Origin: Clostridia bacterium
Lineage (GTDB): Bacteria > Bacillota > Clostridia > Christensenellales > Aristaeellaceae
Length of the DNA: 38,914 nucleotides
Reading direction: 5' to 3'
NCBI GenBank assembly: GCA_017460585.1
Contig: JAFUAR010000373.1
Coordinates: 1-38,914, forward strand
Shown: positions 6,271 to 38,727 of the stretch, in pieces
Position numbering within the stretch: the first letter of the stretch is position 1
Layout of the letters: each line of letters starts with the position of its first letter
Notes under the pieces: generated by a model
Seen by the model: the letters and a program-made list of their open reading frames with translations, nothing else
What the model was told of the DNA's origin: nothing
Databases searched by the model: none
Position numbers and translations under genes: made by a program

Positions 6271-6306
6271 TGTATAATGGATACAGTTTGATAGGAGGAA
6301 TTGGTT

Positions 6307-15006: not shown

Positions 15007-15035
15007 ATTATAGCATAAAAACAATTAACACACAA
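15007..15035 (-). promoter_or_regulatory. Candidate sigma-A promoter of the FHA-essC operon
   Basis: Minus strand reads TTGTGT (15035-15030), a 17-nt spacer, then TGc-TATAAT (extended -10; TATAAT at 15012-15007). This is about 60 nt upstream of ATG 14945. Confidence 0.55.
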
Positions 15036-15076: not shown

Positions 15077-15105
15077 TTGACGATACCCCCTACTTGCGGT
15101 AGAAT
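15077..15105 (+). promoter_or_regulatory. Candidate sigma-A promoter of the 23.5-kb surface-protein / FHA / PP2C / kinase operon
   Basis: TTGACG (15077-15082), a 17-nt spacer, then TAGAAT (15100-15105). This is about 68 nt upstream of ATG 15173. Confidence 0.6.
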
Positions 15106-15172
15106 GATAAACAGTAAAAAGGGCGAAGTATGCTTTTTTTCGAAACGGAGAATTTGGAAAGAGGGATTCTAC

Positions 15173-19108: not shown

Positions 19109-19148
19109 AGCATTGAAGGTTAATCGGCAATCATCATAGCAATGGGCG

Positions 19149-19180
19149 AAGCCGCCCCGGATACAAACGGGGCGGCTTTT
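19149..19180 (+). terminator. Terminator-like hairpin after the 1311-aa gene (possible partial terminator)
   Basis: 11-bp stem AAGCCGCCCCG (19149-19159) / CGGGGCGGCTT (19168-19178) followed by TT. Confidence 0.5.
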
Positions 19181-19201
19181 CCTGAATCGGGGGCGCATGG
19201 A

Positions 19202-20257: not shown

Positions 20258-20329
20258 GCTGCGTACGGGGTAAAGCACCCATGGCGCAACCAGAGGAACC
20301 GATGAATGGATAAGGGAAGGGAAGCTGGA

Positions 20330-23300: not shown

Positions 23301-23386
23301 CGGTAACCGAAAAGACCCCCTTGAACAGCGGCGATACGCTGGAGATCGGTCGCACGACTCTGTTAATTCGCTTTAACGCGCAATAA
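20330..23386 (+). CDS. Single-pass membrane protein: signal peptide, extracellular vWA head, Ig-like A-B-A-B stalk, PT linker, TM and cytoplasmic FHA (1018 aa)
   Basis: MKKILKAMLVLALALALLLP signal peptide. vWA/MIDAS signatures HYVLCVDVSKSI (D-x-S-x-S), VTIITFGD and AVVLITDGVDET. TM FWILAAAVLLFIALIVLLIVLLA (about 22724-22792). FHA LIVGRDQSCAFPVQDETVSTRHLKL...LNSSNGTKLNG. Confidence 0.88.
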   Translation: MKKILKAMLVLALALALLLPEWALAAESGYLSIAEMHQDNDNSGRVYLYLTYVEYNWLAPRDNLHSEDFYTLTMDSKQIPVYNPVLYSRTGGRVHYVLCVDVSKSIKDTERPKVKEALTNFVDNLQSNEMVTIITFGDNVQTVANALSDKNQLRSRIDSIDWTGNTTQLYEGVKTAMDAASVKRMEDAQVGRTAVVLITDGVDETSETSKYTPSAVLDAIINTNVPVYVLYFDRSGKDQQSITELNSFVNASGGLFKMLDAPSLQTILKNIGDLTRNCVQISTQLVNEGQGATQPDSGYPFQVTEGNGKKSAEHNFIVDFQRLPDPTPEPDLAVDETTIVPITEDFEAITVRTEPNSTVTISRKGQTLYQDTSNGSGELTWHFDAETVKLRKGETISVDVEDPSHNRLPEPVTAEVGESSREQITKLEIDGMDGDNVIYGSNFTITGYAEPDAQVLVSWVNNNAGGALHEDVISVKSNGYFEATLDYGTSNNPDTTMARGYVDVKYADYLAYSRWSSTSGQIAWYRDPKPEIDDHIDRFEVDPITEDTDVLRADTEANSTVYVSWQGFEDHSQANEQGVWEYPIRRLKPDTQVVLYAIDPAGNRSENVTKVVNPSTRDKITMNISELGEGGTVNSETLTVTGNAEPGEIVRVTWMSDSEPVPRPKKCEVNEYGHYRAVFTNEECAGGEGYFTAIYDDGNASSKRADDRQVVWNNAPPTPVPTEVPVTEAPTPVPSPTPSEAPTATPAPTIPATPEPTPEPTAEPTPEPTATPAPWPQNWIISFTDYFGGPDEMLENPRFWILAAAVLLFIALIVLLIVLLAKRGRKRTRTPGMDAAEDMPRKDGGAASQAGTIRQGGAPSGPDSGMTLPRNATPPAGGFDLNSTIPMQPSTGTVRIEKKQNVMPTGTVRIRKNGPAPIQLDILETRSFAGISNERTAALATELIVGRDQSCAFPVQDETVSTRHLKLERDGSAVFVTDLNSSNGTKLNGTPVTEKTPLNSGDTLEIGRTTLLIRFNAQ

Positions 23387-23445: not shown

Positions 23446-26400
23446 ATGAAGCGTGTGTGGATATTATGTCTGGCATTGGCGCTGTTTCTGTTGAGTGCGA
23501 CCGCCTTGGCGGATACGCAGGTGACAGATCTGAGCGGGCTGTTCGGCGGCGCAGGCGCTACGGAAACGCAGACGCTGCAGGCGGACCTGAGCAAGGATCT
23601 GAGCCTTGAATTGTGGGATCTGCCATACGGCGGTCGCTGGATCATTTATTCCGATGATATCCCGCGCTTTGCAGCCAACGGCGGATTGTCCACGGAGATG
23701 AGCACCAGTCAGGAGCTGCATAAGGACAAGATCGATATCTGGGCGGACGAAATGGACGGTCTGGATGAGATCGATCTTGAAGTGAAGCTCAGCCTGAACG
23801 GATACAACAACAATACCCCCGCGATTGTGTGGAAGGGTCATATCGTCAACGACGCCATGGCGGGTCGTAAGACCATTACGCTGGAAGCGATTCGCGTAAG
23901 CAAGCAGGGCGGCGCGGAAATTGTGTTTACAGAACAGGGATTTGCCGAGGGCACGTTTGAATCGAGCGATACCGTTGTAATCGAGCTGGCGCAGGGCGTG
24001 CATTTGGATGAGAGCTCTTTGGGCGCGCCCGTAACGCAAAGTGCGGAGGGCGTGTACGAAATGCCGCTTTCCAATGTATCTTCCGGCGAATATCGCTTTC
24101 AGACGGCGGAAATGGACGCATATGGCGTAAGCTATATGGCGTTTCGCCAGCTCACCATGAGCATAGTTGGCGCTTCGCAGCCGGTAGCGGAAGCGCCAAT
24201 TGTGGAGCAGCCTGCGGAATCTCAGCAAACCGTCGTTTCCGTTTCGCCGGCAGAGGAAGCCACGATTCCGCAAGAAGCGATCGCTCCGGAGACTGACGCG
24301 GCGCAGAGCGCGGCGGATCTTTCCAGCTGGGATTTGAATGCGGGAACGCAGGGCGCTTCCGGTGCAATTTTGGTACAGATCGACCCCGTGAGCGAGGATA
24401 GCGGTGTGATTATTGTGCGCACGGAGGCGTACGCCGAGGTTACGCTCATGCAGGGCGCTGCGGAAATCGATTTGGGCATCGCGGATGGCGAAGGCGTATA
24501 TACGTATAATGTCGCTGAAAACGGGCTGAAGCTGAGCGAGGGTCAGGAGATTCGCGCCCGCGCTTCGGACGGATACGATCGAAGTGAGGAAGCGTCCACA
24601 ACCGTAGGTATGTCGGAACGCGCGTTGATTCGAGTGTCCGTAGACGGCGTGTCCGAAGGGGCGTGCTATAGTCCCGTATTGCAAATCGAGGGCAGCGCAG
24701 ATCCGGATCAAATGATTCGCGTACAGTGGTTCCCAGATGGTTTGACCGCGCCCGAACCTATAGTGGTGCAAGCGGCGGGGAACGGCAGCTTTACCGCGGA
24801 AGTGCGCTTTGACGATGCGCATCCCGCGCTTGAATCGGTGACCGGACACGTGAGCGCGGCATATGCCGACGGGCTCGCCGCCAGCCGTTCGGGCGACAGC
24901 GGTAGTTTCCTATGGGCGCGCGAAGTGCCCGTGCCGCCGGATACGGAGCTGAGCGGACTGCTCGTGCTCCCCGTGACCGAAGACAGCGCTGAAATTGTAG
25001 TGCAAACGGAAGAAAATGCGCACATCGTCATCGCGCAGGATGGTGCGACGCTCGCCGAGGGCGACGCGGATGACAATGGCGATTGGCGTTGGACGCTGCC
25101 GGATGGTTACGCGTTGCCCGCGAAGCAGACGCTTAGCGTGACGGCTACCGACGAGGCGGGCAACAGCGGCAGCGCGGAGGTCGCGGTAGGCGTATCCACC
25201 CGCGAAGCCATCGTGCTGTCCGTGCGCAACGTGGATGGCGCGCAGCATTTGCTGAACCGTGAAACCATGACCGTAGTGGGGCGTTCACAGGAAAACGAGC
25301 CCGTACGCGTGGGCTGGTATACGCCCGAGGGCGTGCTGCTGGCGGAAGAGACCGTGCAGGAAGGCGGAAACTGGAAGGTGGAGCTGGAGGGCGATCTGGA
25401 TACCGACGGAGAGGGCTATGTAGCGGCGGTATACGCCGATGGACGCGCAAAGAGCAAGAGTACGCGTTCGGAATCCTTTACATGGGATCACGCGCTGCCT
25501 ACGCCCGAACCCACCGCGGAGCCCACGCCTGAACCCACCGCGGAACCTACGCCCGAACCTACCGAAGCGCCTACGCCCGAGCCCACCATTCCGCCGGCAA
25601 CGGAAGCGCCCACCGCGGAACCCGAGCCGGAACCCACGGAGGAGCCTGCGCAGGAACCGGATATCGTGGATTTGACGAACGATTCGACGCCTTCGCCGGA
25701 TGCGCCTATTGAAGACGAAGGCTTTATTGAGGAGTGGAAAGAGCGTTTCGAGGATGAACCCATGCTTCTGGTTGGCGCGATTGCCGCTTTGCTGGCGGTA
25801 ATCGGCGGTATTGTCGCTGCAATTGTTCTTTCCGGAAAGAAGCGCAAGGCCGCAAGGCGTAAGCAGGATTTTCTGGTGCGCGCCAGCGAGGATGCGCCGC
25901 GACCGGTGAGCGAACAGTCTGTCAGCCAGACGGTGCGCCAAAATAATCCCGCGGGCGGCGTGCAGGGAACAATAATATCGCCCATAAACGGCGTGACGAA
26001 TGCTGCGCCGCAGCAGACGTTCGTGCCCCAGCCGACCGCGCCCATATCGCATATTCCCACGCCTCCCGCGGGCGGCACGGGAACCACGCGAATCGGGCAG
26101 ATCAATCTGGACCAGACCCGAGAGATTGGCGGAGGCGGCACTGTGCGCCTTGGCACGCAGGCGATTCAAATGAAGTTTGAGGAGCGCAGAGATTTTGCGG
26201 GTGTGCTCAACCACCGCACCGCGCCTTTGGTAGACGGTATGGTGCTGGGGCGCGACGCGGGTTGCGACTTTGTGATTACGGATGAGACCGTGTCGTCCAG
26301 ACACGCGCGCATTACGCGCGAAGGTCCCATGGTATTTGTGGAGGATCTGCATTCGTCCAACGGTACTACGCTGAACGGGCAGGATGTTCTCGCGAAGATG

Positions 26401-26460
26401 GAGCTGCACTCCGGCGACGTGCTGGAGGTTGGCAGAACCGTGTTGAAGGTTCAGTTTTAG
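23446..26460 (+). CDS. Single-pass membrane protein: signal peptide, unknown head, Ig-like A-B-A-B stalk, PT linker, TM and cytoplasmic FHA (1004 aa)
   Basis: MKRVWILCLALALFLLSATALA signal peptide. TM LLVGAIAALLAVIGGIVAAIVLSG (about 25762-25836). FHA MVLGRDAGCDFVITDETVSSRHARI...LHSSNGTTLNG. The C-terminal ~650 aa are colinear with the 20330..23386 product. Confidence 0.88.
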   Translation: MKRVWILCLALALFLLSATALADTQVTDLSGLFGGAGATETQTLQADLSKDLSLELWDLPYGGRWIIYSDDIPRFAANGGLSTEMSTSQELHKDKIDIWADEMDGLDEIDLEVKLSLNGYNNNTPAIVWKGHIVNDAMAGRKTITLEAIRVSKQGGAEIVFTEQGFAEGTFESSDTVVIELAQGVHLDESSLGAPVTQSAEGVYEMPLSNVSSGEYRFQTAEMDAYGVSYMAFRQLTMSIVGASQPVAEAPIVEQPAESQQTVVSVSPAEEATIPQEAIAPETDAAQSAADLSSWDLNAGTQGASGAILVQIDPVSEDSGVIIVRTEAYAEVTLMQGAAEIDLGIADGEGVYTYNVAENGLKLSEGQEIRARASDGYDRSEEASTTVGMSERALIRVSVDGVSEGACYSPVLQIEGSADPDQMIRVQWFPDGLTAPEPIVVQAAGNGSFTAEVRFDDAHPALESVTGHVSAAYADGLAASRSGDSGSFLWAREVPVPPDTELSGLLVLPVTEDSAEIVVQTEENAHIVIAQDGATLAEGDADDNGDWRWTLPDGYALPAKQTLSVTATDEAGNSGSAEVAVGVSTREAIVLSVRNVDGAQHLLNRETMTVVGRSQENEPVRVGWYTPEGVLLAEETVQEGGNWKVELEGDLDTDGEGYVAAVYADGRAKSKSTRSESFTWDHALPTPEPTAEPTPEPTAEPTPEPTEAPTPEPTIPPATEAPTAEPEPEPTEEPAQEPDIVDLTNDSTPSPDAPIEDEGFIEEWKERFEDEPMLLVGAIAALLAVIGGIVAAIVLSGKKRKAARRKQDFLVRASEDAPRPVSEQSVSQTVRQNNPAGGVQGTIISPINGVTNAAPQQTFVPQPTAPISHIPTPPAGGTGTTRIGQINLDQTREIGGGGTVRLGTQAIQMKFEERRDFAGVLNHRTAPLVDGMVLGRDAGCDFVITDETVSSRHARITREGPMVFVEDLHSSNGTTLNGQDVLAKMELHSGDVLEVGRTVLKVQF
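25498..25593 (+). repeat. Four tandem 24-nt repeats encoding (PTPEPTAE)n in the juxtamembrane linker
   Basis: Units at 25498-25521, 25522-25545, 25546-25569 and 25570-25593: cctacgcccgaacccaccgcggag and three close variants. Confidence 0.85.
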
Positions 26461-26540
26461 CGTTTGATCGAAGCATGGAAAGCCGGGGTGGCATCGCTCC
26501 GGCTTTCTATGGAAAATGTACATCGATGGGGGAAACGGGT

Positions 26541-29500
26541 ATGAGGTATGGGCTGAAAGGTTTAGGAATTTTGCTGCTTGCGGTACTGCTGGTTTGCGCG
26601 CCCGCGCTGGGCGAGGAAGCTGCACCGACAAGTGTTCCACTTGCGTCGGTTATAGGCAATATCGAAGCACCAGTACCCGTGAAGCCCCATTATGCCCTCT
26701 ATGATTGGAGCGCCGTGTGCGAATTGTCGGAAGAGCTCTCGCAGGATGCTCCGATTGAATGTGATTTCTCGCAGGATATCCGTTTTGTATTCAACGATAT
26801 ACCGAAAGAATTTGGTATTGAGATAGAAATAGACGGACAGCAGAGGGAACAACTCGAAAGCAGAGAATACACGCTTGCCGTTGGATCTATTCCAACGGAC
26901 AATGTGGTTGTGGCTGTATATCTCGCTGCCTCTGAATGGAGTGAGCCCAAGCCGATTTGGAGGGGCACGCTGCAGAGCGGCGGCGAGATAAAGGATATTC
27001 ATCTGTATTTGCTCTATACCCTGCAGAATGATACCGTACTGGAGGAGAAGGAACCGGTTATAGATGGAAGAATTCCCGTTTCCGCTGAAGCGGAACAGGA
27101 ATCGGTAGAGTTATCCGTGTGGTTGGCAAAAGGGTTGCAACTAGAAGGACCTTTGGCGATCAACTCAGGAAGCGATGGGAACTATACCGTTGTTTGGAAT
27201 AAGAATAATCTGTTCTTTTCACTGTATTCCAACGAGGGCTATGGCGATCAAGACCGCAAATGGGTAGAGCACCGTTACGCATTGGTTGAAGATGGTGAGG
27301 ACAAAATCAGTTCTGAATCCACGATTGCTCCTTCGGATGAATTCACGGATGAACCCAGTGCCTCTCCCGAGCCGCAGGATACGAGCGCGATTGTAGATAC
27401 GGCGTCTCCTTCCCCCGCGCCTACGCCCATACCCGTAGCATTGGAAATTTACTTAAAGGGAAAAGAGAATGCAATTCAGCTGATGCCCTCAATGGATCAG
27501 CGAGTGATCAGCGGAATATATGCGTTGGAGATTCGTACCTCGAGCGATATTGACTGGACACAGGTAAATGTATTGGTTTCAGGCGTTCCGGCAACCATTG
27601 AAGAGATCGACGGCAGCAGAATCGTCGAATTGACTGTGGAACACCATTCCGCAACGGAAATCCAAGTGTTTTATCAAGCCAAACCTCAGGGAACCTATAG
27701 TTTAAAAGGCTATCAGCCAATCCGCATTACGAATAAGGAAGAGGTTACAGAAGAATATCGTCAGGGAAGCAAAAGCGCAGATATTTCGTTTACTATAGAC
27801 GATGGCTATTTGAACGGAAATAAAGATGTCGATATCCGCATTGAAGAGGGATTGGAGGGCGATTTTCTGGTTCCCAAAACCCTCGATAATATGACGCTTA
27901 TTGATTCTGGAAATTATAGCTATACACTGAATATTCCGGAAAGAGTAGAGGGAATCTATACTTTTTCGATTCGATATGTCGCTTCGAGGGAGTACGTCGA
28001 GCCGCGAGAGCAGCTTGAAGGAATTGAGGACGCATCTTCCATTCATCTTACGGTCGATACGAAGGCACCACAGTGCATTGGCGTTCAAATCAACGATACG
28101 GAGATTGATAAATTAAATGAAGCCCTCAAAGCGGAAGTATATGCCAATACGAAACAGGCGGAGGTATCCGTAACCTTCGATGAGTCGGTGGAATTGTATG
28201 TGAACGGCGAAAAGCAGGCGGGTGAAGCCAAAGCGAAGTGGAATATTTCCGTTGATATTCCGCAGGATGGCGCGCCGGTACGAATTTCGGCAAAGGACGG
28301 TTTTGGCAATGAGACCAAAGCGCCTGTGGAAATTGGATTTGATATTATAGACCCAATTGGAAATGTGACGCTAATGGATCAATCGTCCGGAGAGACGCTA
28401 GGCGGCGAATTGCTGGAAGGGAAAAAGGATATTTCGCTCCATATAGAGGGGTCGAAGGGGCATACGCCGGAGGGCAGCTACCATTTTGACGACGAACCGG
28501 AAGAAACCATTAAGCCCGTAAGATCGTCCATAGGCGAGGGGTGGGATGTCTTCATTCCGCTCGAGGGTGTAAGCAATGCGTGTAAGACCCTCACCCTCAC
28601 GCTCGCGGGGGAGGATACGCCCTATAAGTGGATTATCGATTTGGAACCGCCCGAGGCGCAGGTTCAGTCGATTACCGCCGAAGAAGGCGGCAAATCGACT
28701 TACAGTGCGCAGAAGAACGCGCTCACTTGGTTGAGCGGTGAAGCGCTTAGCGTTACGCTGGACAATCCCAAGGGCGATGTTGAGCGCGTCGAGCTGAACA
28801 ATGCGCCGATCTGGGTTCGGGAACAAGGAGGCATTGAGAAGGAATCCTCTTCCCAAATTGAGTTTACCCTAGATGCCGAGCGCGTAAATGGAGCGGAATC
28901 CATTGTCTTTGATCTGTTCGATGAATACAATAATTCCAGCAACACAAAGCCCATCTCTGTACGGGCTTTTGTGCCCGCTCCCATTGAGATTGCCTTGGAA
29001 GAAGACGAACAACAGGTCGCGTTTGGCGGGACAAAGGCTCTCGAACTGAATGGTAGTGCCGAATCCGGTTGGGCGCTGATTGCAAAGCTGGGCGAAGCAG
29101 AGGGAATCTCTATTGCGGTGGATGAAAATGGCGAATGGACGCAGACATTTGAACCGGAGCAGTATCCCGAAAGCGAGACGACGCTGACGCTCTCCTATGA
29201 AAACGGACTGGGAGAGACAAAAGACATTGACGTAACAATTGATCAAACGTGCGAGATTGACTTCCCCGAATCCGTGACCGAAGGGGACGACTTTATCGAA
29301 TTAGAGGCGCTGGAGGACGGCGTTACGGTCATCGTGAAGCTGAATTCTGAAGTTGTATCGCGCTTTGCCGAAGGGGAAGCGGGGGAGGTTCTGCTCACTG
29401 CGGAAGGAAAGAACAAAGTCGAGATCACCCAAAGCGCGAAATTGGGCGATGAATATCTCATCCAAGCGATCGACCAATATGGCAATGAGAAGACGACCGA

Positions 29501-30605
29501 CGAACCCATTCGCGTAGTCGCTAAAGAAGGAGACATTAAGGACTTTGCATTGACTGCCAACGGCAATTCCATAGTAAGCGGAGCGTTCATTCAGTACGAT
29601 GGCGGTCCCATCGCCTTTACGGGCACTCCCAATCCGGAAGGAAGGCTAACCGTGGAAGTGACGAAGGACGGTGCGCAGATCGAAGTATCGGAGCAAACCG
29701 GCGCGTTTGCGCTGGAAAACGCCGAAGACGGCGAATATAGCGTAATGGCGAGGCTCGCGGACTACCAGAATATCCACTCGGAGCCGATCATATTCACCAT
29801 AGACAACACCAAGCCCGTCGTTCAATGCGCCTCCGATATTTCCGACCTCGCGGCGCAGCTCGAGCTTTCCGCCGATGAAGACAGTAAATTCAAAGTGGAA
29901 ATTGATGGAGCGCTCGCGTATGAGAGCGAAGACTTCGAAAACGGAGCGATCGTATCGATCGATTGGGAGAAAGACGTACTTTGGCAGGCGAAGGAGATCG
30001 CCATTATTGCAATGGATCGCGCGGGCAATATTTCCGAAACGAAGAAAGTCGCAATTACGCCCACGGACGCGTACAGAGTATGGCTCGATACCGCGCCGGA
30101 ACGCGTGGAGCAGGGGCAGATGATTACCGTAACGGGTACGCTAGCCTACCGAGGCGCGGATCGACCGACGGTGCAGGCGCAGCTGCTCTCCGCGGAGGAT
30201 AAACCGCTTCGGGACAGCAAGGGCGGCGAGCTTCAACCTGTAGAAGTAGAGTGGGGCGAGGAAGCGCCGGTTAACGAGGCGTCTATTGAAGGAATGCGCG
30301 CCGACCATTTGCAGAAGTTTTCCGCCGCGTTCCGCGCGGAGGACTATCCGAGGGGCGAAGCGAAGGTGCGATTGATCGTGAAAGAGGCGCAGGAGCTCAC
30401 CGATCGGAGCGTGCAAATCGATCTGAACAGCGGAAAGCGCACGCGTTATATCGCCATAATCGCCGCGCTGGGCGTTGCGCTGATCGTAGTGCTGATCGCT
30501 TTGGCAATCGTCAGCAAAAAGATTTCCGCGCTCAAGGACGCGGAGATCGATCGCCGCAGCCGCGCGAGTAACCTGACCATCCGACAGAAGGGCGGTCGCC
30601 CGTAA
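26541..30605 (+). CDS. Large surface protein with signal peptide, repeat-rich ectodomain, C-terminal TM and a 27-aa cytoplasmic tail (1354 aa)
   Basis: Start trimmed to MRYGLKGLGILLLAVLLVCAPALGEE (GGGGGA RBS). TM YIAIIAALGVALIVVLIALAIV, then tail SKKISALKDAEIDRRSRASNLTIRQKGGRP. Visibly lower GC than neighbouring genes. Confidence 0.8.
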   Translation: MRYGLKGLGILLLAVLLVCAPALGEEAAPTSVPLASVIGNIEAPVPVKPHYALYDWSAVCELSEELSQDAPIECDFSQDIRFVFNDIPKEFGIEIEIDGQQREQLESREYTLAVGSIPTDNVVVAVYLAASEWSEPKPIWRGTLQSGGEIKDIHLYLLYTLQNDTVLEEKEPVIDGRIPVSAEAEQESVELSVWLAKGLQLEGPLAINSGSDGNYTVVWNKNNLFFSLYSNEGYGDQDRKWVEHRYALVEDGEDKISSESTIAPSDEFTDEPSASPEPQDTSAIVDTASPSPAPTPIPVALEIYLKGKENAIQLMPSMDQRVISGIYALEIRTSSDIDWTQVNVLVSGVPATIEEIDGSRIVELTVEHHSATEIQVFYQAKPQGTYSLKGYQPIRITNKEEVTEEYRQGSKSADISFTIDDGYLNGNKDVDIRIEEGLEGDFLVPKTLDNMTLIDSGNYSYTLNIPERVEGIYTFSIRYVASREYVEPREQLEGIEDASSIHLTVDTKAPQCIGVQINDTEIDKLNEALKAEVYANTKQAEVSVTFDESVELYVNGEKQAGEAKAKWNISVDIPQDGAPVRISAKDGFGNETKAPVEIGFDIIDPIGNVTLMDQSSGETLGGELLEGKKDISLHIEGSKGHTPEGSYHFDDEPEETIKPVRSSIGEGWDVFIPLEGVSNACKTLTLTLAGEDTPYKWIIDLEPPEAQVQSITAEEGGKSTYSAQKNALTWLSGEALSVTLDNPKGDVERVELNNAPIWVREQGGIEKESSSQIEFTLDAERVNGAESIVFDLFDEYNNSSNTKPISVRAFVPAPIEIALEEDEQQVAFGGTKALELNGSAESGWALIAKLGEAEGISIAVDENGEWTQTFEPEQYPESETTLTLSYENGLGETKDIDVTIDQTCEIDFPESVTEGDDFIELEALEDGVTVIVKLNSEVVSRFAEGEAGEVLLTAEGKNKVEITQSAKLGDEYLIQAIDQYGNEKTTDEPIRVVAKEGDIKDFALTANGNSIVSGAFIQYDGGPIAFTGTPNPEGRLTVEVTKDGAQIEVSEQTGAFALENAEDGEYSVMARLADYQNIHSEPIIFTIDNTKPVVQCASDISDLAAQLELSADEDSKFKVEIDGALAYESEDFENGAIVSIDWEKDVLWQAKEIAIIAMDRAGNISETKKVAITPTDAYRVWLDTAPERVEQGQMITVTGTLAYRGADRPTVQAQLLSAEDKPLRDSKGGELQPVEVEWGEEAPVNEASIEGMRADHLQKFSAAFRAEDYPRGEAKVRLIVKEAQELTDRSVQIDLNSGKRTRYIAIIAALGVALIVVLIALAIVSKKISALKDAEIDRRSRASNLTIRQKGGRP

Positions 30606-30626: not shown

Positions 30627-31580
30627 ATGGGTCTGAAAATAGATACCGCCGTATACAGCCATATCGGGCGGCGCAAGAATAACGAGGATAATTTCTTTTT
30701 GGACGGGCTCTATATGGAGCGCGACCAAATGAACAAGGGCGGTCAATACCACGCCGTGAAGAAGGGCGACGAGCAGATCTACGCCGTTTGCGACGGTATG
30801 GGCGGCGCGGAGTTCGGCGAGGAGGCCTCTTTGCGCGCGGTGCAGCGCCTGAAGGAATACAAAGAAAAGTGCCGTCAGCCGGACAACACGGGCAATCTCA
30901 ACCAAATGATTGACGAGGCGTCCCGCTGGATTGACGATATTTCTCTCGCCAAGGGTATGGAGTCCGGCTCGTCCGGCTCTACCATCGCCATGCTCATTAT
31001 GAAGGATTGGTATTTCCGCACGGTGAACGTGGGCGATAGCCGCGTATATCGCCTGCGCGGGGGCTTGCTGGAGCGCATGACCAAGGATGATTCCGAGGTA
31101 CAGCAAATGGTGGATCGCGGCGAGATTACTTTGGATCAGGCTTGGCAGCATCCGCGCAAGAACGTGATCACCCGCCACTTGGGTATGCCCATGGAAGGGG
31201 AGGCGTTGATGCCTTCGGTATCCATGCGCTTGGATTTGAACCAAGGCGACCGCTTTCTGATCTGTTCGGATGGTTTGAGCGATTCGCTGCACGATTCTGT
31301 CATTCGCAGAATTCTTACCGAACAGCATACCCCGCAGGCAACCGCGGCGCAGCTGGTGCGCACGGCGCTTTCGGAAGCGGACAACATGGGCGTGGCATCG
31401 GATAATATTACCGTAATTGTACTGGATGTGCTGGAGGCGGGCGGACAGGATGCGGATGTGAAGCGCATTCGCAAGCTTTCCGCGGCGCGCGCGGGTTTGG
31501 CGGCGGCGAGCGTGCTGCTGGCGGGCGGAATCGGGTACGAGGTATTCCAGCTCATTCAATTTCTGAATAGTTCCTATTGA
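30627..31580 (+). CDS. PP2C (PPM) Ser/Thr phosphatase with C-terminal membrane anchor (317 aa)
   Basis: Motifs GRRKNNEDNF, AVCDGMGGAEFGEEAS, GSTIAM, VNVGDSRVY, ICSDGL and DNITVIVLDV. C-terminal hydrophobic segment GLAAASVLLAGGIGYEVFQLIQFL. GGGGGAG RBS present. Confidence 0.9.
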   Translation: MGLKIDTAVYSHIGRRKNNEDNFFLDGLYMERDQMNKGGQYHAVKKGDEQIYAVCDGMGGAEFGEEASLRAVQRLKEYKEKCRQPDNTGNLNQMIDEASRWIDDISLAKGMESGSSGSTIAMLIMKDWYFRTVNVGDSRVYRLRGGLLERMTKDDSEVQQMVDRGEITLDQAWQHPRKNVITRHLGMPMEGEALMPSVSMRLDLNQGDRFLICSDGLSDSLHDSVIRRILTEQHTPQATAAQLVRTALSEADNMGVASDNITVIVLDVLEAGGQDADVKRIRKLSAARAGLAAASVLLAGGIGYEVFQLIQFLNSSY

Positions 31581-31609: not shown

Positions 31610-34600
31610 ATGGAGAACTTGGAACAGCGCATACGGCAATACGAACCCTTCTTCGGCAGGTGGAAGCTGAACGATCCGCCGGAGATCCTTGGGCGCGGCA
31701 ATTCCGGCGTGGTCTATCGGGTGCACGACCCGGAAAACGCGGCGGACGCGGCGCTCAAGGTCATACCCATACCGAGGGATGAGGGTGTGCTCGAGCAATG
31801 GCGGCGGGAATGCGGCGGTAACGAGAGCATGGTGCGCGCCATGATCGATCAGGAATATCGCTATGCGCAAACTGAGATCGATATTATGCACCGTTTGAAG
31901 AGCGACAGCAATATCGTATGCTTTGAGGATGCGAAAATCTATAAGCGCTCCGATACCTACGGTTACGATGTGGTCATCCGCATGGAGCGGTTGATTCGCT
32001 TGGACAGCTTTTTTCAGAATCCGGGCAAATACGGCTATGGTCACAATATGGAGACCTACCTGATTATCTGGATGCACTTAACCCGCGGTTTGGCGTTCTG
32101 CGAGCGCAGCGGCATTGTCCATTTGGATATCAAGCCGGACAATATATTCTATGCCGAACCCTCCCGAGACGCGTTCAAGGTGGGCGATTTCGGCGTGTCC
32201 ATTCGCAGCGATAACGGCAAGTCTGTGGGCGTGGGCATGGTGGTCGGCACGCGCGATTATATGGCTCCCGAAGTGTATCGCGGCGAGGGCGGCGATATTC
32301 GTTCGGATATTTACAGCCTCGGCGTGGTGATGTACAGCCTGTTCAACGGCGATCGTTTGCCCTTTTTGCCCGCGCACGGTCGAGTGAGCGAGGAGGACAA
32401 CAACGTAGCGCGAGATCAGCGGCTTTCCGGAAAGGAGGTACCGCCCATTAAGGGAATGGATCCGCTGCTTTCGGAAATATTGCTCAAGTGCCTGCGCTAT
32501 CGCCCGCAGGATCGCTACCAGAGCATGGAGACCCTGAACAACGATATTACCCGTTACTACTATATGTGGCTGGATGAGGGCGGCAAGCGCGGCGGCGCGG
32601 GCGGTTCCTCGCGGACGCTTCCCATCGTAATCGGCACGGCGGCGGTCGGTCTGGTGAGCATCATCGCGTTCATACTGTGGCAGATGCTGCATTCCGGATC
32701 GGGTTCTGTAGAGCAGGAGCAGCCTACCGCAACGCCGATGGATGAAAACACCGCGCGGCCCACGGAATTGCTTCCGGAGCCCACCGCGCAGGAGGAAACG
32801 AGCGCGCCGACCGCTTTGCTCGAATCCACCGATACGCCCGAACTCACCGAAGCGCCCACTCCCGCGCCTACGCTCATGCTGAACCCAGATTTTGTCAGCG
32901 CGGGCGAACAAGGCGTGGTGGTGATGAACGCCGACAATCGAAACGATCCCATCACGCTGTACGGCGCGGCGGGCAGCTCGCTAATGGGCGCGTGGATGTT
33001 CGAAGGGCAGCTGGTCAAATCCGAATTTGTTGAATTCGATGAGAGAGGCGAGGCGACCATTACCGTGCCGTATTCGCAGGACGGCGAATATACGCTGCGC
33101 TGCGGCTATGACGGCGCGAACGCCTCGGAATATGAAACGTTCACCTTCCGGATCGATACCGTAGCGCCGGAACTCACCTTCCTGCACGTACCCTACGCGG
33201 AGGTGGGCAACCAGACGCTTGAGGTGCAAACCGATCCCTATGCCCGCGTGCGCGTGTTCGATGAGGCGGGCAATCCCATTGTGGAAACAACCGATGCCGA
33301 CGAGTACGGCAGGGCAAACATATCCATTGTCGAGCCGTTGGAAAGCGACGCGACCTATTTCGTGCGCGCGCAGGATAGCGCGGGCAATGCCAGCGCTTCG
33401 TTCAGCGCATCCATACCGCCGGTTATGCTGTCGCTCGCGCATCCGGTCTCCATGGGCGATACTGAAATTGAGATTCTGACCGACGCGCATAATGACATTA
33501 CCGTGACCAACGGCGAGCAGTATATGGTGACCCCGATCGGCGACGACGATGGCGACGGCGCGGTACTGTGGAGCTTGGACGCGCCCGCGGGGTTTGGCGA
33601 TACGTACTACATCAGCGCCATTACGCCCGATGGACGCGTGCATATGATCTCGGCACAGGTGGAGACGTGGCGAAGGATCGAGCTGGAGGAGATTAACCGA
33701 GCCGAGGCGGAGCACAGCCGCAGCATACAGGTTAACGGCGTTGCGCAGCCCAATCAGGAGGTCGTGCTCACGTGGAAGGGTACTGCGGTGGAAGCCGCCC
33801 GCAGGCGCGCGGACGGCGAAGGTGCGTTTTCCATTGAGCTGAATCCCGAGGATTGCGGCGTAGACCCGTCTGGCGATGTTGGCGCCATCGGCGCGGTGTA
33901 CGCCGGCGCGGAGGGCGAAGCGGCGACTGCGGCGGAGCCCATTGAGGACGTTCAGTGGAGCCCTGAGGCGAACGCTTCCATCCCCGCCGCCGTGGGTGAA
34001 GGCGATTTGGAGTTGCGAATTATCGCGCCGGAAGCTGAGCGTGTAACGGTAAACGGTTCCGAGGCGGGCTTGGAGCACGAGGAAGGCTCGAGCGAGTATT
34101 ACTACCGGCCGGAGGGCGGCGCGTTCGATCCGGATGTGGAATATGTGGTTTCCGTGCGCGATGCGGCGGGTTACGAAAAGACGCAGTCCGTCGTGGTGGA
34201 TATGCTGGAGCGCGTACCCATTCAGATGGCATTGGGGCAAGGCTATTTATCGGAAGGGAAACGGTTTATCGGCGAAAAAATGACCGTTCGCGCCGAGGCG
34301 TCGCCCGGGCGGGAAATTGAAATAGCGTGGATTGATCACAAAGATGACTCCATTCTGCTATGGACCGGCGAGGCGGACGAAAATGGCAATATCAGGGCGC
34401 AAATCGACGCGGGCATTGTATTTGGGAATAGCGGAGATAACGTATACCTGAAATCGGGCACGATTCGCGTAGCGTATGCGGGCAGTGTAGCGCAGGATAA
34501 CGCGGCGAAGCTCAGTATTCGCTGGTATCTGCGACCTGTATTAACCATTCGCCCCAATACGGTTACCGAAACGACTGAACAGTTAATCGTCAGCGCAAAT

Positions 34601-37600
34601 ACTGGCGCGACGGTATCCGCGTATATCAACGGAACACTCGTGGTCAATGACGATGCGCTGGACGCCTACGATACGGCGAAGATTTTGCTCGAAGAGATAA
34701 AAGCAGGCGACGAAATCGTTGTGCGCGTCGAACTGGTAGACGACGAAGGCAACGTGCTGTCGCGTGAATCTGAGCCCATGGTGGTTCAGGAGGTCGAACG
34801 GCAGCCCATTACGCTTCAAACGGATGAGGAGGCGCGCGGCGACCAATTGCGCGGTACGTTCTCGGCGGAGCCCGGTTGCGCTGTGGCGCTCTATTGGAAC
34901 GGCGAATGGATTTCTTCATTTGAAGCGGAAGAAGGCGATACGCGTTTCTTCGTTATGGAGGAAGAGATTGGCGATTTCGTTGAAACCGAGGGTTGGCTAT
35001 CCGCGCGTTACGCGGACGGCAAGGCGGAGAGCGCAGCGTCGGAAGGCACATATGTGCACTGGATTTCGCGTACGGAGCTGGAGCTGCTGACCGACGATGT
35101 GACCGAGGATGATTCTACCATTATCGTTCATACGGGAAAGGATGCGCACGTCAACGTCGTGATTGGCAATACCGATCTTGGCGAGCGCGAAGCGGACGAC
35201 TCCGGCAATTTCGTGTGGAATTTAGAGGAGCTTGGCGTACGTTTGCGCGTAGGAGATCGAATTGAATACACCGCGTATGATGATTACGGCAATTCCGCAA
35301 CCATTACCGACACAGTGCAGGCATCCTCGCGCGAAGAAATTCGAGCAACCATTAAAAACCTGCAGGGCGGCATGATCGTGGGCGGAGCGGCGAAGCTGAG
35401 CGGCAGCGCAAGCCCCAATTATGAGCTGCAGGCGTATTGGAACGATATGCCGGTGGGCGGAATCATTCGAACCGATTCGCAGGGCGATTTCAGCGCGGTG
35501 CTGTCGGAAAACGAAATTCAGGGCGGTGGCACGCTCTATCTGAGGTATGCGGATGGTCTGGGCAACAGCCGTCAGTTCAGCGTGCCGATTACCGGTTTGG
35601 TGGGCGAGCTGGAGGAAGCGCGGCTGGAAGAGCCGATTTATGAGGACGCCGAGCAACTCGCGGTGCATACCGCCTCGGGCGCGCAGGTGGATTTCTATCT
35701 GAACGGCAGACTGATGGGCAGCGCAACCGCCAATGGCGACGGCGTTGCGGTTTACGATTTGGCGGGACAGGCGCTGAGCGCGGACGACCGAATCTATGCC
35801 ATCGCCTCAGATGGATACACGAAGAAACGCGGCGATCAGGTGCTGGTGCAGCCCGAGGAGCGTATGCCCATCGATATTACGGTGCGCGCTGTGTCTTCAG
35901 AGGGGCGCGTGTACGATGAAAGTATGCTGGTAATCGTATGGGCGCAAATGAATAAGGGCATTGAGGTGCTGTGGAACGACGTTCCGATCGAGTGGACGCA
36001 GACCAGCGTGTACAATGAGAACAACGTCGCCATACGCATCGATATGCCGCAGAATTTCGAACAGGGCTGGGGCACGCTGACCGTGCGCTACGCGGACGGC
36101 AAGGGCGAAGCGGCAGTGCAGGACGTGGATTGGAGACTCAATGTAGAGCTTCCCGTATCCATCGATACACTGAGCGAGGATAGCGCTACGCTGACCGTGC
36201 ATGGTCCCGTAGGCGCGGTTGTGCGGCTGGAGGATGCGAACGGCGCATTTGTTGCCGATGGTTTGCTTCGCGCCTTGGATTCGACCGGCGAAGGAATGTG
36301 GAAGTATCCGACCGCGCAGGGCTTTACGGAGGGCGAAGTCTATCGCGCCATCGTGACCGATGGAGAGGGCAACGAAGGCAGCGCCACCGCGCGCGTGGAA
36401 GCCTCGCAGCTGGCGTTTATTGAGGCGCGGGTCGGCGGAGGCGATTTCCTGCTGCCTATCGAGATCAACGCCGAGCCGAACAGCGAAGTTGTGTTGCGGG
36501 TCAATGGCGCGGTGAACGCGGTGGCGAGCATTGGCGGCGACGGCAGCGCAAATATAGCCCTTGCGCCGAACGGAGCAATGGTGAACCATACGCAAACGGT
36601 CTCCATTTCTGTGGAGTATGCCGACAATGTGGCGCGCAGCCGCGCGACCGAGGTTGTTCAGGAATGGACGCCTTTGCTCACCGTGCGCCTGAGCAGCGAG
36701 GAAATTCCTGCTGAGAAGCACCAGATTGAGGTATTTGCGCCCGTTGTAGACGGCGTTGCGGTGTTTGGAGAGCTGGGCGGAGAGGTGCGCCAAGCGAGTT
36801 ATTCGCGCGGAAACGGCGCCTATCTGCTCGATTTGGGCGATGAGGTCTCCGCGGGCGAAACCGTGACCATTTGGGCGGAATACGACGGCGCTGAAAGCGA
36901 ACGCGTGGAAGCGCACATTGCCCGCAGAAGCATTGCCGCGATTATTACCGGCAAAGAGCTGAACACGCCGACGGTCGAATTGATGGGATACGCACAGCGC
37001 AATTCTTCCATTCAGGTCGCGGCGCAATTTGAGGGCGTCGCTCCGGAAGAAACCGCCGTATACGTGCAGTTGGAAAATAGCGATACCTTCCAAACGAGTC
37101 TTGATTTGGCGTTTGTACCCTTGAGAAGCGGCGATTATCCGTTTACGCTGGTCGCGCGGTACGAGGGCGAGAGCGAATGGCTGGAGGTGGGCAGCGCGAG
37201 CTATGTGCTGCACGCCGACCTTCCAGAGGAACCTGTTTTACTCACCGCGCCGATTACAGCGGACGATGCGGGCGTGGTCTACGCGGTGTCGGATGATGTG
37301 CGCTACGCGAGGCTTTTCCTCAATGGAGTGCCAGAGAGTTCGATCGAGCTGACGGAAGGGACGACTACCGCGCAGTTCGATGTGGAGCTGCGCGAGGGCG
37401 ATGAGATTGAAGTGCTGCTGTATAATGAAGCAGGATGGTATATCGTGAGCGAGCCTGTATGGGTCGGCGCGGCGGCAACGCCCGCGCCCACAGATACGCC
37501 GATTCTCACACCGGAACCTACGGCAATACCCACGCTAGAACCCACAGCGGTACCTACGCCGATTCCCACGGCGGTACCTACGCCGATTCCTACGGCAGTA

Positions 37601-38683
37601 CCTACGCCCATTCCCACGCAAGCGCCTACTCCGATGCCGACTGAGGCGCCCACGCCGGAGCCTACGGCGGTACCCACGCCCGTGCCTACGGAGCAGCCTA
37701 CGCAGGTTCCTTTCACGGAAGCGCCTGCGCCGACGAGCGTGCCGTTGGCGCCCCAGTCCGATCTGGACGGCGCAATTGAGATCATCAACAACTTCCTGCC
37801 GGTGGGCTCCGATTTGGATATTGTAGGTCAATATAGCGGAGACGTTCGCCAAAAGGAACTCACGCTGTATGCGCAAGATATCGGCAAGGAACTGCTGCCG
37901 AGCAGCGTTGAATGGAATGGGAATAGCTTCCACATGACTGTGAAGACGGTTGGTCTGCCGGAGGGAATGCATTCCGTCTATTTGGCGGCGTATGATTGGG
38001 GTACGGATAGCTATACGCAGCTTTCCAATACGCAGCCGTTCTCGCTGTATCCGGAAAACGTTACCTCCGAACCCACGGCTTCCCCCGTACCTACGCCCAT
38101 TCCCATCCAAAAGGATGTGCCCGATGCCGAAGCGTACGTGCTGGGCGGTTTTGTGAACGGCATGGAAATCGATCCGTTTGCCGCGGGCGTAGACGTGCCG
38201 GAGAATACCGCGTTCCGACCGGATCAGCTGTTGCTGACCATGTGGATTTATAAATCCTACGATTTTGCGCCCTCCATCGGCGATATTACGGTGCTGGATG
38301 CAAATGACAACGCGGTCGCGCATATCCCAATGGATGTGGAGCAGGATACTAAAAATTATAATCCTGCAATCGTTCAGCCCAATATAGCCTTTAGAACCTA
38401 TCGCAATACGCAGGGCTTGAATTATGAAAGCCTGAATAAAGTGCGGGATAAGGTGACGAATGAAAACGATGTTGAGGCGGGCATGATTCTTTGGCTCGAT
38501 CTCACGCAGGCGAACGCAAACCTGCCGGACGGCAAGTATACGCTGCGTATCAATGTACATGTGTCGGGCGAGCCGGTATATGTGGACGCTCCGGTACAGC
38601 TGGTGGGCGTATGGCCCGAGCGCGATATGCGGGCGGATATTCAACAGATCGTGAACGAATGGGAGAGCGAACAACCGGAATAA
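31610..38683 (+). CDS. Giant Hanks-type Ser/Thr protein kinase: cytoplasmic kinase domain, one TM and a ~2000-aa ectodomain (2357 aa)
   Basis: Motifs LGRGNSGVVYRV (Gly loop), AALKVIP (Lys), HLDIKPDN (catalytic loop, non-RD; Asp codon 32126-32128), VGDFGVS and GTRDYMAPE. TM LPIVIGTAAVGLVSIIAFILWQML (about 32615-32686). The ectodomain has about 8 A-B module pairs, a PT linker and a ~310-aa terminal domain, with no PASTA repeats. AAGGAG RBS present. Confidence 0.92.
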   Translation: MENLEQRIRQYEPFFGRWKLNDPPEILGRGNSGVVYRVHDPENAADAALKVIPIPRDEGVLEQWRRECGGNESMVRAMIDQEYRYAQTEIDIMHRLKSDSNIVCFEDAKIYKRSDTYGYDVVIRMERLIRLDSFFQNPGKYGYGHNMETYLIIWMHLTRGLAFCERSGIVHLDIKPDNIFYAEPSRDAFKVGDFGVSIRSDNGKSVGVGMVVGTRDYMAPEVYRGEGGDIRSDIYSLGVVMYSLFNGDRLPFLPAHGRVSEEDNNVARDQRLSGKEVPPIKGMDPLLSEILLKCLRYRPQDRYQSMETLNNDITRYYYMWLDEGGKRGGAGGSSRTLPIVIGTAAVGLVSIIAFILWQMLHSGSGSVEQEQPTATPMDENTARPTELLPEPTAQEETSAPTALLESTDTPELTEAPTPAPTLMLNPDFVSAGEQGVVVMNADNRNDPITLYGAAGSSLMGAWMFEGQLVKSEFVEFDERGEATITVPYSQDGEYTLRCGYDGANASEYETFTFRIDTVAPELTFLHVPYAEVGNQTLEVQTDPYARVRVFDEAGNPIVETTDADEYGRANISIVEPLESDATYFVRAQDSAGNASASFSASIPPVMLSLAHPVSMGDTEIEILTDAHNDITVTNGEQYMVTPIGDDDGDGAVLWSLDAPAGFGDTYYISAITPDGRVHMISAQVETWRRIELEEINRAEAEHSRSIQVNGVAQPNQEVVLTWKGTAVEAARRRADGEGAFSIELNPEDCGVDPSGDVGAIGAVYAGAEGEAATAAEPIEDVQWSPEANASIPAAVGEGDLELRIIAPEAERVTVNGSEAGLEHEEGSSEYYYRPEGGAFDPDVEYVVSVRDAAGYEKTQSVVVDMLERVPIQMALGQGYLSEGKRFIGEKMTVRAEASPGREIEIAWIDHKDDSILLWTGEADENGNIRAQIDAGIVFGNSGDNVYLKSGTIRVAYAGSVAQDNAAKLSIRWYLRPVLTIRPNTVTETTEQLIVSANTGATVSAYINGTLVVNDDALDAYDTAKILLEEIKAGDEIVVRVELVDDEGNVLSRESEPMVVQEVERQPITLQTDEEARGDQLRGTFSAEPGCAVALYWNGEWISSFEAEEGDTRFFVMEEEIGDFVETEGWLSARYADGKAESAASEGTYVHWISRTELELLTDDVTEDDSTIIVHTGKDAHVNVVIGNTDLGEREADDSGNFVWNLEELGVRLRVGDRIEYTAYDDYGNSATITDTVQASSREEIRATIKNLQGGMIVGGAAKLSGSASPNYELQAYWNDMPVGGIIRTDSQGDFSAVLSENEIQGGGTLYLRYADGLGNSRQFSVPITGLVGELEEARLEEPIYEDAEQLAVHTASGAQVDFYLNGRLMGSATANGDGVAVYDLAGQALSADDRIYAIASDGYTKKRGDQVLVQPEERMPIDITVRAVSSEGRVYDESMLVIVWAQMNKGIEVLWNDVPIEWTQTSVYNENNVAIRIDMPQNFEQGWGTLTVRYADGKGEAAVQDVDWRLNVELPVSIDTLSEDSATLTVHGPVGAVVRLEDANGAFVADGLLRALDSTGEGMWKYPTAQGFTEGEVYRAIVTDGEGNEGSATARVEASQLAFIEARVGGGDFLLPIEINAEPNSEVVLRVNGAVNAVASIGGDGSANIALAPNGAMVNHTQTVSISVEYADNVARSRATEVVQEWTPLLTVRLSSEEIPAEKHQIEVFAPVVDGVAVFGELGGEVRQASYSRGNGAYLLDLGDEVSAGETVTIWAEYDGAESERVEAHIARRSIAAIITGKELNTPTVELMGYAQRNSSIQVAAQFEGVAPEETAVYVQLENSDTFQTSLDLAFVPLRSGDYPFTLVARYEGESEWLEVGSASYVLHADLPEEPVLLTAPITADDAGVVYAVSDDVRYARLFLNGVPESSIELTEGTTTAQFDVELREGDEIEVLLYNEAGWYIVSEPVWVGAAATPAPTDTPILTPEPTAIPTLEPTAVPTPIPTAVPTPIPTAVPTPIPTQAPTPMPTEAPTPEPTAVPTPVPTEQPTQVPFTEAPAPTSVPLAPQSDLDGAIEIINNFLPVGSDLDIVGQYSGDVRQKELTLYAQDIGKELLPSSVEWNGNSFHMTVKTVGLPEGMHSVYLAAYDWGTDSYTQLSNTQPFSLYPENVTSEPTASPVPTPIPIQKDVPDAEAYVLGGFVNGMEIDPFAAGVDVPENTAFRPDQLLLTMWIYKSYDFAPSIGDITVLDANDNAVAHIPMDVEQDTKNYNPAIVQPNIAFRTYRNTQGLNYESLNKVRDKVTNENDVEAGMILWLDLTQANANLPDGKYTLRINVHVSGEPVYVDAPVQLVGVWPERDMRADIQQIVNEWESEQPE
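37544..37615 (+). repeat. Three tandem 24-nt repeats encoding (TAVPTPIP)n within the kinase distal PT linker
   Basis: acagcggtacctacgccgattccc (37544-37567), acggcggtacctacgccgattcct (37568-37591) and acggcagtacctacgcccattccc (37592-37615). Confidence 0.85.
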
Positions 38684-38690: not shown

Positions 38691-38727
38691 AAAAAAATGG
38701 GGCTGGAGGTTCAAATTGACCTCCAGC
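38691..38727. terminator. Intrinsic terminator; canonical on the minus strand, and it also ends the plus-strand kinase operon
   Basis: 9-bp stem GCTGGAGGT (38702-38710) / ACCTCCAGC (38719-38727). On the minus strand the hairpin is followed by CCCATTTTTTT (A-run 38691-38697 on plus). The plus strand has no U-tract. Confidence 0.65.

Follow-up and report, generated by a model that had tools for sequence, protein, structure and literature searches.

Type VII secretion system (T7SS) subtypes T7SSc to T7SSj were defined by Garrett, Higginson and Palmer in 2024 (Microlife 5:uqae013, PMC11217815). Their TsxD membrane kinases combine an EssB-like topology with intact active sites and occur alongside PPM phosphatases, FHA proteins and large immunoglobulin (Ig)-like TsxI proteins; the topology of the T7SSc kinase TscD was likened to that of EssB, and phosphorylation control of the T7SS was proposed by analogy with the type VI secretion system (T6SS) (PMC11217815). 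In T7SSb, EssC's FHA domains have lost their phosphothreonine (pThr)-binding motifs and the EssB-EssC contact is phosphorylation independent (PMC11217815). Here we describe a 38,914-nucleotide (nt) stretch of an uncultured Clostridia genome (assembly GCA_017460585.1, contig JAFUAR010000373.1, forward strand; hereafter the window) and a giant receptor Ser/Thr kinase that it encodes at positions 31610 to 38683. We consider it reasonably likely that the product of this gene is the sensor kinase, a TsxD-type component in the nomenclature of Garrett et al. 2024, of a T7SS controlled by phosphorylation. The central idea of a preliminary description of this DNA, that an active kinase stands in for the EssB pseudokinase, had already been published by these authors (PMC11217815). 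That the window is a T7SS locus follows from the presence of an EssC ATPase, WXG100 genes, a DUF4176 gene and a YukD-like open reading frame (ORF).

Two other phosphorylation pathways bear on the comparison. In the T6SS pathways PpkA-PppA-Fha1 of Pseudomonas aeruginosa and PpkA-TssL-Fha of Agrobacterium tumefaciens, assembly is gated posttranslationally by a membrane Hanks kinase that bears an extracytoplasmic sensor, together with a PP2C phosphatase and an FHA protein. In Actinomycetales, the experimentally characterized Esr pathway, built from a surface filament, a vWA protein, a kinase and a phosphatase, phosphorylates an FHA protein (pT152) and controls Esx (bioRxiv preprint of 2026, doi 10.64898/2026.09.08.750141, PMC13622651).

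The kinase gene is a 2357-codon ORF without interruption, with an AAGGAG Shine-Dalgarno sequence 7 nt 5' of its ATG, and a full-length search found an identical protein (P0121) on the ENA metagenome contig k141_806783. The gene and its parts are as follows.

31610 to 38683, plus strand: giant receptor Ser/Thr kinase gene, 2357 amino acids (aa), last gene of the plus-strand operon.
31610 to 32575, plus strand: cytoplasmic Hanks-type kinase domain, aa 1-322, non-RD (HLD 171-173), predicted from motifs, AlphaFold2 (AF2), Foldseek and hhalign.
32624 to 32680, plus strand: single transmembrane (TM) helix, aa 339-357 (Kyte-Doolittle scan, score 2.51).
33434 to 37234, plus strand: ∼7 tandem units of ∼180 aa (aa 609-1875), each predicted to form two Ig-like β-sandwiches (jackhmmer self-search, in-register alignment, AF2, Foldseek).
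37469 to 37756, plus strand: Pro/Thr-rich (PT-rich) linker of 96 residues, aa 1954-2049, 55% P+T (reading of the translation).
37757 to 38680, plus strand: two distal extracellular domains parted by a short PT linker at aa 2152-2167 (translation).
38702 to 38727, plus strand: hairpin with a 10-bp stem, 19 nt past the kinase stop, a probable intrinsic terminator of the operon (terminator scan).

The inverted repeat at 38702-38727 is perfect over 10 bp, and because the better T-run lies on the minus strand the hairpin may be a bidirectional terminator.

The product is a Hanks kinase with every catalytic motif intact and is predicted to be active. Pfam Pkinase matches aa 25-311 (E 2.8e-32; 112.6 bits against a cutoff of 31.7), and the motifs read G28-R-G-N-S-G33, A48-L-K50, H171-L-D173-I-K-P-D-N178, D193-F-G and A219-P-E; αC E89, D233 and R302 are likewise conserved in alignments of the kinase family. 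The AF2 model of aa 1-340 has the canonical bilobal kinase fold (mean predicted local distance difference test [pLDDT] 92.7; predicted template modeling score 0.90), with an extra helix in a ∼20-residue insertion between β3 and αC, and its top Foldseek matches are active eukaryotic-type kinases (CaMKII, Aurora and others, E about 1e-16). These results uphold what the preliminary description had read from the letters, namely, intact catalytic motifs (Pfam Pkinase and motif positions), a non-RD catalytic loop (H171-L-D173), and one TM segment followed by a ∼2000-aa ectodomain lacking PASTA repeats (hydropathy scan and Pfam).

The helix at aa 339-357 is the only segment of the kinase above the hydropathy threshold, leaving aa 358-2357 as the ectodomain. 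No PASTA repeat was found by Pfam in the whole protein at E≤0.01; the bacterial Ig family Big_6 matches the ectodomain (E 4.4e-14). Self-BLAST of the kinase gave no off-diagonal matches; jackhmmer and motif spacing brought out the repeats, with an R/E-Y-A-D motif recurring at aa 955, 1133, 1312, 1493 and 1669 and the repeat alignment built from nonoverlapping units. An AF2 model of the unit at aa 1162-1340 is all-β and contains two Ig-like sandwiches (pLDDT 83.3), and its best Foldseek matches, the Bap C-region (7DM0, 4.7e-8), MpIBP (4P99) and SiiE (2YN3), are tandem repeats of giant adhesins. The rod is followed by an ∼80-aa segment of unassigned fold, the Pro/Thr linker and the distal region, which has no match in Pfam or NCBIfam and weakly resembles the C termini of the proteins P0128, P0129 and P0146. 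Repeat alignment, unit model and translation portray the ectodomain as an adhesin-like rod of tandem Ig-like domains, then a PT-rich linker and two distal domains that are candidates for a tip sensing a ligand or contact. With at least 14 Ig domains and the linker, the rod could plausibly be long enough to cross a Gram-positive wall and emerge beyond it. The ectodomain (32681-38680) is also strongly acidic, with 330 D/E against 115 K/R, and nearly devoid of cysteine (3 Cys in its 2000 aa).

A full-length query recovered at least 25 clusters of 1528- to 2426-aa Pkinase plus Big_6 proteins of the same clade from metagenomes; an N-terminal 420-aa query returned nothing longer than ∼735 aa, apparently through a length filter of the search. 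The preliminary description had placed the protein among the larger bacterial Hanks kinases, and large it is, but these clusters and one 2719-aa member make it unexceptional. A non-RD H-[LMFQ]-D loop is present in 24 of 26 giant-clade members, whereas in the wider Clostridia kinase family 107 of 111 members carry HRD, so that by sequence the non-RD state is a conserved trait of the giant clade. The same search returned other giant kinases (P0144, P0145, P0170 and P0171), one pair being RD kinases of ∼2480 aa with leucine-rich-repeat-type ectodomains and the other pair kinases of ∼2200 aa fused to FHA, which indicates that curated families understate the variety of giant receptor kinases in metagenomes.

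The kinase closes a plus-strand operon that diverges from a minus-strand operon carrying EssC. The plus-strand order is MBG protein, RCC1 propeller, vWA-FHA protein, Big_6-FHA protein, 1376-aa surface protein, PP2C and kinase, and the genes of the two operons that enter the argument are these.

30627 to 31580, plus strand: PP2C/PPM Ser/Thr phosphatase, 317 aa, the kinase's partner (Pfam, NCBIfam, synteny).
26475 to 30605, plus strand: 1376-aa surface protein with signal peptide, Ig-like ectodomain, C-terminal TM and 30-aa tail, TsxI-like (weak Big_13/Big_7 matches; topology).
23446 to 26460, plus strand: 1004-aa protein with Big_6, TM and cytoplasmic FHA domain (FHA E 1.4e-18, Big_6 E 2.6e-12; topology).
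20306 to 23386, plus strand: 1026-aa protein with vWA, Big_6, TM and cytoplasmic FHA domain (VWA E 1.6e-14, FHA E 3.2e-17; topology).
19142 to 20257, plus strand: membrane-anchored RCC1-repeat β-propeller protein, 371 aa (RCC1_2 E 5.1e-20; N-terminal TM at aa 41-59).
15077 to 19108, plus strand: MBG-domain surface protein, 1343 aa, first gene of the operon (MBG_2 E 4.4e-8; N-terminal anchor).
13782 to 15035, minus strand: membrane FHA protein, 417 aa, with an extracellular peptidoglycan (PG)-binding-like segment and a cytoplasmic C-terminal FHA domain (FHA E 1.5e-13, weak PG_binding_1; TM at aa 282-300).
13151 to 13732, minus strand: small membrane-anchored FHA protein, 193 aa, termed FHA193 (FHA E 1.4e-15).
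8202 to 13100, minus strand: EssC/TsxC, an FtsK-family T7SS ATPase of 1632 aa with an N-terminal FHA domain (FtsK_SpoIIIE E 1.5e-55, FHA E 4.6e-10).

The phosphatase gene ends 29 nt upstream of the kinase gene, and its product matches PP2C_2 (E 3.8e-13) and, under that family's cutoff, the Stp1/IreP family (5.8e-48). The preliminary description had paired the kinase with a membrane PP2C; the pairing stands, and a hydrophobic stretch at the C terminus, from aa 284 onward (Kyte-Doolittle 1.54), gives weak support for membrane anchoring.

This arrangement is conserved. A vWA-FHA protein, a big Ig-like protein, PP2C and giant kinase occur in the same order on four independent contigs (L001, L085, L086 and L087), on each of which the gene immediately upstream of the kinase encodes a PP2C orthologue, 52-62% identical; on two of the four (L085 and L086) the kinase has WXG100, LXG-like and DUF4176 genes downstream of it. 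The 1376-aa surface protein is syntenic in L085 and L087, the RCC1-repeat protein has an orthologue in L085, and a homologue of the 1343-aa MBG protein lies upstream in L086. Kinase domains of these orthologues are 39-58% identical and ectodomains 23-26%, and such conservation of cytoplasmic parts with divergence of ectodomains is the pattern expected of a surface sensor. Across the wider family, a strong EssC match lies within 10 kb at 15 of 80 genome loci, and a PP2C at about 40; by our own estimate fewer than one EssC match among 80 loci would be expected by chance. The kinase is a member of a Clostridia-specific family often found beside EssC and PP2C, not grouped with the PASTA housekeeping kinases. 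In the closest genome (L001:10001-19752; GCA_017431365.1, JAFRLF010000017.1), two tandem kinase genes follow PP2C, a short one (516 aa, kinase domain 58% identical, hydrophobic C-terminal segments) and a giant one (2719 aa with Big_6 domains); the window carries the giant form only.

The FHA domains of the locus appear equipped to read phosphothreonine. The GR, SxxH and NG pThr-binding motifs are intact in four of the five, those of EssC and of the 417-aa, 1004-aa and 1026-aa proteins, with the EssC domain (aa 85-190) carrying TIGR, SGMH and VNG. In the published classification, TsdC, TseC and TsjC, each with a kinase, keep the motifs at 90-100%, and TsbC, TsfC and TsiC, without a kinase, show 0-30% for the first two (Table S1 of PMC11217815). 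Since published subtypes pair motif retention with a kinase, the intact motifs of EssC point to a kinase-controlled T7SS.

The two large FHA proteins also carry possible targets. Pairs of G-T-[VT]-R-[IL] motifs lie in their disordered cytoplasmic TM-to-FHA linkers, two GTVRI copies in the 1026-aa protein (nt 23003-23017 and 23045-23059) and GTTRI and GTVRL in the 1004-aa protein (nt 26080-26094 and 26137-26151). In the window proteins and their orthologues in L001, L085 and L087, each linker holds 2 to 5 copies of GT[VTAI]R[ILM], and the orthologue in L086 has the variant GGTV[CS]L instead (orthologues at L001:1-814, L085:356-3997, L087:194-3841 and L086:1959-5039); we estimate the chance occurrence of a GTVR-type motif at about 1e-3 per linker. 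FHA domains usually prefer I or L at pT+3. Because a Thr with I or L at +3 fits this preference, we propose the GTVR[IL] threonines as targets of the kinase.

Taken as regulation, these parts suggest the following sequence of events. The stalk would reach through and beyond the cell wall and inform the kinase domain in the cytoplasm of an external cue, such as contact, damage to the envelope or the surface of a competitor, the signal passing probably by clustering or dimerization of the kinase; the non-RD loop makes such control, as opposed to activation-loop phosphorylation, probable. The kinase would then phosphorylate partner membrane proteins on threonines of their disordered cytoplasmic linkers, GTVR[I/L] being the best candidates, and the FHA domains of EssC and the accessory proteins would bind the resulting pThr sites, driving assembly or activation of the secretion machine until PP2C resets the system. 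By analogy, the logic would be that of the T6SS PpkA-PppA-Fha1 and TssL-Fha pathways and of the Actinomycetales Esr pathway. The T6SS module likewise contains a membrane Hanks kinase, a PP2C, an FHA protein and a vWA domain; unlike in the window, the vWA domain is on the PpkA kinase itself and not on an FHA protein, the secretion system and envelope type differ, and homology evidence does not go beyond shared domain families. Esr, compared here by gene content, shares with the window filament or β-propeller surface sensors of diverse sequence, a vWA protein, a kinase and phosphatase, an FHA output and T7SS-linked genes, and its FHA output protein is phosphorylated on a threonine of a disordered linker, to which the candidate sites of the window would correspond. 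In contrast to Esr, the window belongs to Bacillota and not Actinomycetota, its filament is fused to the kinase, its RCC1 propeller is a separate small protein, and domain scans of the window genes found neither the MoxR AAA+ ATPase nor the transglutaminase of the Esr cluster.

A bolder version, which we offer tentatively and think less likely than not, makes the giant kinase a contact or threat sensor that fires the T7SS within seconds through GTVR[I/L] pThr sites on the vWA/Ig-FHA proteins, which would nucleate EssC. The rod would project past the wall and detect a competitor cell, a phage or an envelope insult. If true, this would be a Gram-positive posttranslational analogue of T6SS "tit-for-tat," working through a non-RD receptor kinase; non-RD kinases are otherwise linked to innate-immune receptors (PMC8463890).

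Several observations weigh against a phosphorylation-controlled T7SS with this kinase as its sensor. EssC lies ∼18 kb from the kinase on the opposite strand, and EssC was not seen in the 10-kb flanks of the orthologous giant-kinase loci, so that the direct link of the giant clade to EssC comes from this window together with flanking WXG100 and DUF4176 genes elsewhere. In FHA193, GQ replaces the canonical pThr-binding GR. The GTVR[IL] threonines are candidate phospho-acceptor and FHA-docking sites picked out from sequence alone. Finally, the N-terminal 920 aa of EssC are less similar to the kinase-bearing subtypes TseC (32% identity) and TsjC (29%) than to TsiC and TsfC (35%).

The alternative that survives best is that the kinase is the functional or evolutionary counterpart of EssB, a core subunit docking on the FHA region of EssC and an active relative or ancestor of the pseudokinase; we think this unlikely. 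Topology speaks for it. Like EssB/YukC (PDB 4ANN, 6Z0F and 2YNQ), the kinase is a single-pass protein with an N-terminal cytoplasmic kinase fold and an extracellular C terminus in a locus whose EssC bears an N-terminal FHA domain, and TsxD kinases were ranked among the core components, with the topological parallel remarked upon (PMC11217815). A single TM with an ectodomain is, however, typical of most receptor Hanks kinases and so weak evidence. As the preliminary description had stated, EssB is missing within the window: no plausible gene matches Pfam YukC (PF10140), to which Staphylococcus aureus EssB, its sequence validated against PDB 4ANN, matches at 2.9e-123 as a positive control. Beyond the window, the 15 EssC-bearing wider-family loci were passed through a crude filter for ORFs that resemble EssB (250-650 aa, one central TM, no HxDxKPxN), which gave 8 candidates; 2 of these were scanned with Pfam and lacked YukC, and 6 were dismissed by eye.

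Homology beyond the generic kinase fold is what fails. Kinase aa 1-357 has no match to YukC even at E≤10, and a 68-sequence profile of the kinase family compared with the EssB N-domain gave an hhalign probability of 0.1% (E 0.48; a single EssB sequence, which limits sensitivity), versus 100% (E 4.7e-57) with Mycobacterium tuberculosis PknB. The profile comparison was used because the Foldseek match list, filled by at least 2000 true kinases, gave no ranking of EssB against PknB. By sequence, then, the kinase is not a specific relative of EssB, and only topology agrees. Its catalytic residues are intact and not degenerate, its ectodomain is ten times larger and all-β instead of helical, its partner FHA domains are pThr competent by motif, where the T7SSb contact uses an FHA domain without the pThr residues, and the locus has a dedicated phosphatase and four further FHA proteins. 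Of the preliminary proposal that the kinase fills the EssB niche, what remains is thus the topology and the missing EssB, and its corollary, that the kinase could illustrate how EssB arose, was not borne out. Among the outcomes that this description had named as counting against it were the absence of affinity to EssB and clustering with PrkC-type housekeeping kinases; we found the first and not the second. The context (PP2C, four of five intact FHA domains and conserved T-x-x-[I/L] repeats in partner proteins) points to reversible Thr-phosphorylation and FHA signaling in preference to a static EssB-like scaffold, although both roles are compatible.

Another locus, L028, encodes a degenerate kinase-like domain. 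The protein at L028:17-1525, cut by the locus end, is a membrane protein with a TM, a PT-rich ectodomain and a kinase-like domain (Pkinase 26.5 bits, below cutoff) in which GDLNHDN replaces HRDxKPxN; its gene neighbors a homologue of EssC (33% identity) and a LytTR gene, and from its sequence the protein could be a pseudokinase in a T7SS locus.

Quite improbable, in our view, is that the vWA-FHA/Ig-like/PP2C/kinase operon forms an independent adhesion or envelope-signaling module that merely adjoins a T7SS island. The likeness of the ectodomain to the giant adhesins Bap, MpIBP and SiiE would suit such a module, as would the orthologous loci in which EssC is not visible within 10 kb and the many wider-family kinases without nearby T7SS genes (P0008, for example). 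But T7SS genes flank the operon on both sides in the window, WXG100 and DUF4176 genes recur downstream of the kinase in L085 and L086, EssC is enriched near members of the kinase family, FHA membrane proteins share an operon with EssC, and EssC itself retains the pThr residues that track with a kinase component in published subtypes.

A last reading is a housekeeping kinase of the PrkC/StkP/PknB type acting in growth and division. With such kinases the protein shares a Hanks catalytic domain, a single TM and an Stp1/IreP-type PP2C partner, and PknB is its best PDB sequence match (E 3.6e-22). The lack of PASTA repeats and of a cell-division neighborhood in the window effectively refutes this reading. 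Also against it are a score of 96 bits against a cutoff of 450 on the top NCBIfam match, PknB_PASTA_kin (NF033483), and the non-RD state of the clade in a largely RD family; the protein further differs from PASTA kinases in its ∼20-residue β3-αC insertion.

Returning to the TsxD-type sensor kinase, we compared the locus with the published subtypes. Like T7SSc/d/e/j, it has a kinase with an N-terminal cytoplasmic domain (here predicted to be active), one TM and an extracellular C terminus, a PPM phosphatase (TsxF), separate FHA proteins, a TsxI-type protein, WXG100 and YukD-like proteins, and a TsxC whose FHA domain keeps GR/SxxH/NG; the kinase, phosphatase and FHA module is typical of T7SSe and T7SSj. 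Unlike in those systems, the kinase is non-RD, its ectodomain is ∼2000 aa of tandem Ig-like domains in place of the helical C termini of TscD and TsdD or the tetratricopeptide repeats of TsjD, and vWA/Ig-like surface proteins carry FHA domains on their cytoplasmic tails, in place of a DUF6382-FHA protein (TsxJ). DUF6382, the N-terminal domain of TseJ, had no match at E≤10 in FHA193 or the 417-aa FHA protein, both of which are membrane proteins, whereas TseJ is cytoplasmic. With T7SSi the window shares a LytTR regulator beside EssC, in the published classification reported only for that subtype (TsiN), but TsiC motifs are poorly conserved and T7SSi has no Hanks kinase or phosphatase. EssC scores 964 bits on the NCBIfam model TIGR03928 T7_EssCb_Firm (cutoff 778); compared by BLAST with one partial representative per subtype, derived by optical character recognition, it is 29-37% identical to all Bacillota types, with BLAST scores of 468 bits for TsiC, 448 for TsfC and 425 for TseC and 29% identity to TsdC. 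On these sequences the locus fits no Garrett subtype cleanly and the ATPase is close to none, and the lineage of the window, an uncultured one within Clostridia, is not represented in the RefSeq-based survey (PMC11217815).

The remainder of the window, at lower coordinates than EssC, comprises the following, of which the three minus-strand entries continue the co-directional gene set of EssC.

7422 to 8168, minus strand: LytTR-family regulator, TsiN-like, directly downstream of EssC (LytTR E 1.7e-24).
6949 to 7425, minus strand: 158-aa ORF between the LytTR gene and the YukD-like ORF, with no match in Pfam or NCBIfam.
6671 to 6922, minus strand: YukD/EsaB-like ubiquitin-fold ORF, 83 aa (Pfam YukD E 5e-4, below the gathering score).
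1197 to 6606, plus strand: substrate region with about six WXG100-like genes, a 608-aa LXG/EspC-like protein, a 2-TM protein and DUF4176 (Pfam; WXG100 E 1e-6 to 1e-10, DUF4176 E 2.2e-27).

A LytTR homologue near EssC is also found in three other kinase-bearing loci (L028, L075 and L081). From its position, the 158-aa ORF might encode a T7SS accessory protein, for instance a chaperone-like one (EspG/TsxG-type). The 608-aa protein (4006-5832, plus strand), whose N terminus is EspC/WXG-like and whose C-terminal region is rich in Gly, probably serves as a substrate or toxin of the T7SS; its homologue at L086:16617-18161 is 28% identical and is encoded just past the giant kinase and between WXG100 and DUF4176 genes.

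What is new here is a conserved clade of giant non-RD kinases, a rod of ∼7 double-Ig units, FHA domains on the tails of surface proteins, GTVR[IL] repeats and an ATPase that closely matches none of the published subtypes. The switching-on of T7SSb-like machines in Bacillota is, to our knowledge, largely unexplained, and we know of no experimental follow-up in Bacillota of the kinase/phosphatase/FHA variants described in 2024. The locus is a clear test case, in which a single kinase and a single phosphatase are joined by five FHA domains and by candidate phospho-motifs that are short and repeated, and it cautions that not every kinase-fold protein with a TM segment in a T7SS locus is an EssB equivalent. 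Because the ectodomain is adhesin-like, it suggests that antibacterial toxin secretion by gut Clostridia may be coupled to the sensing of their surroundings.

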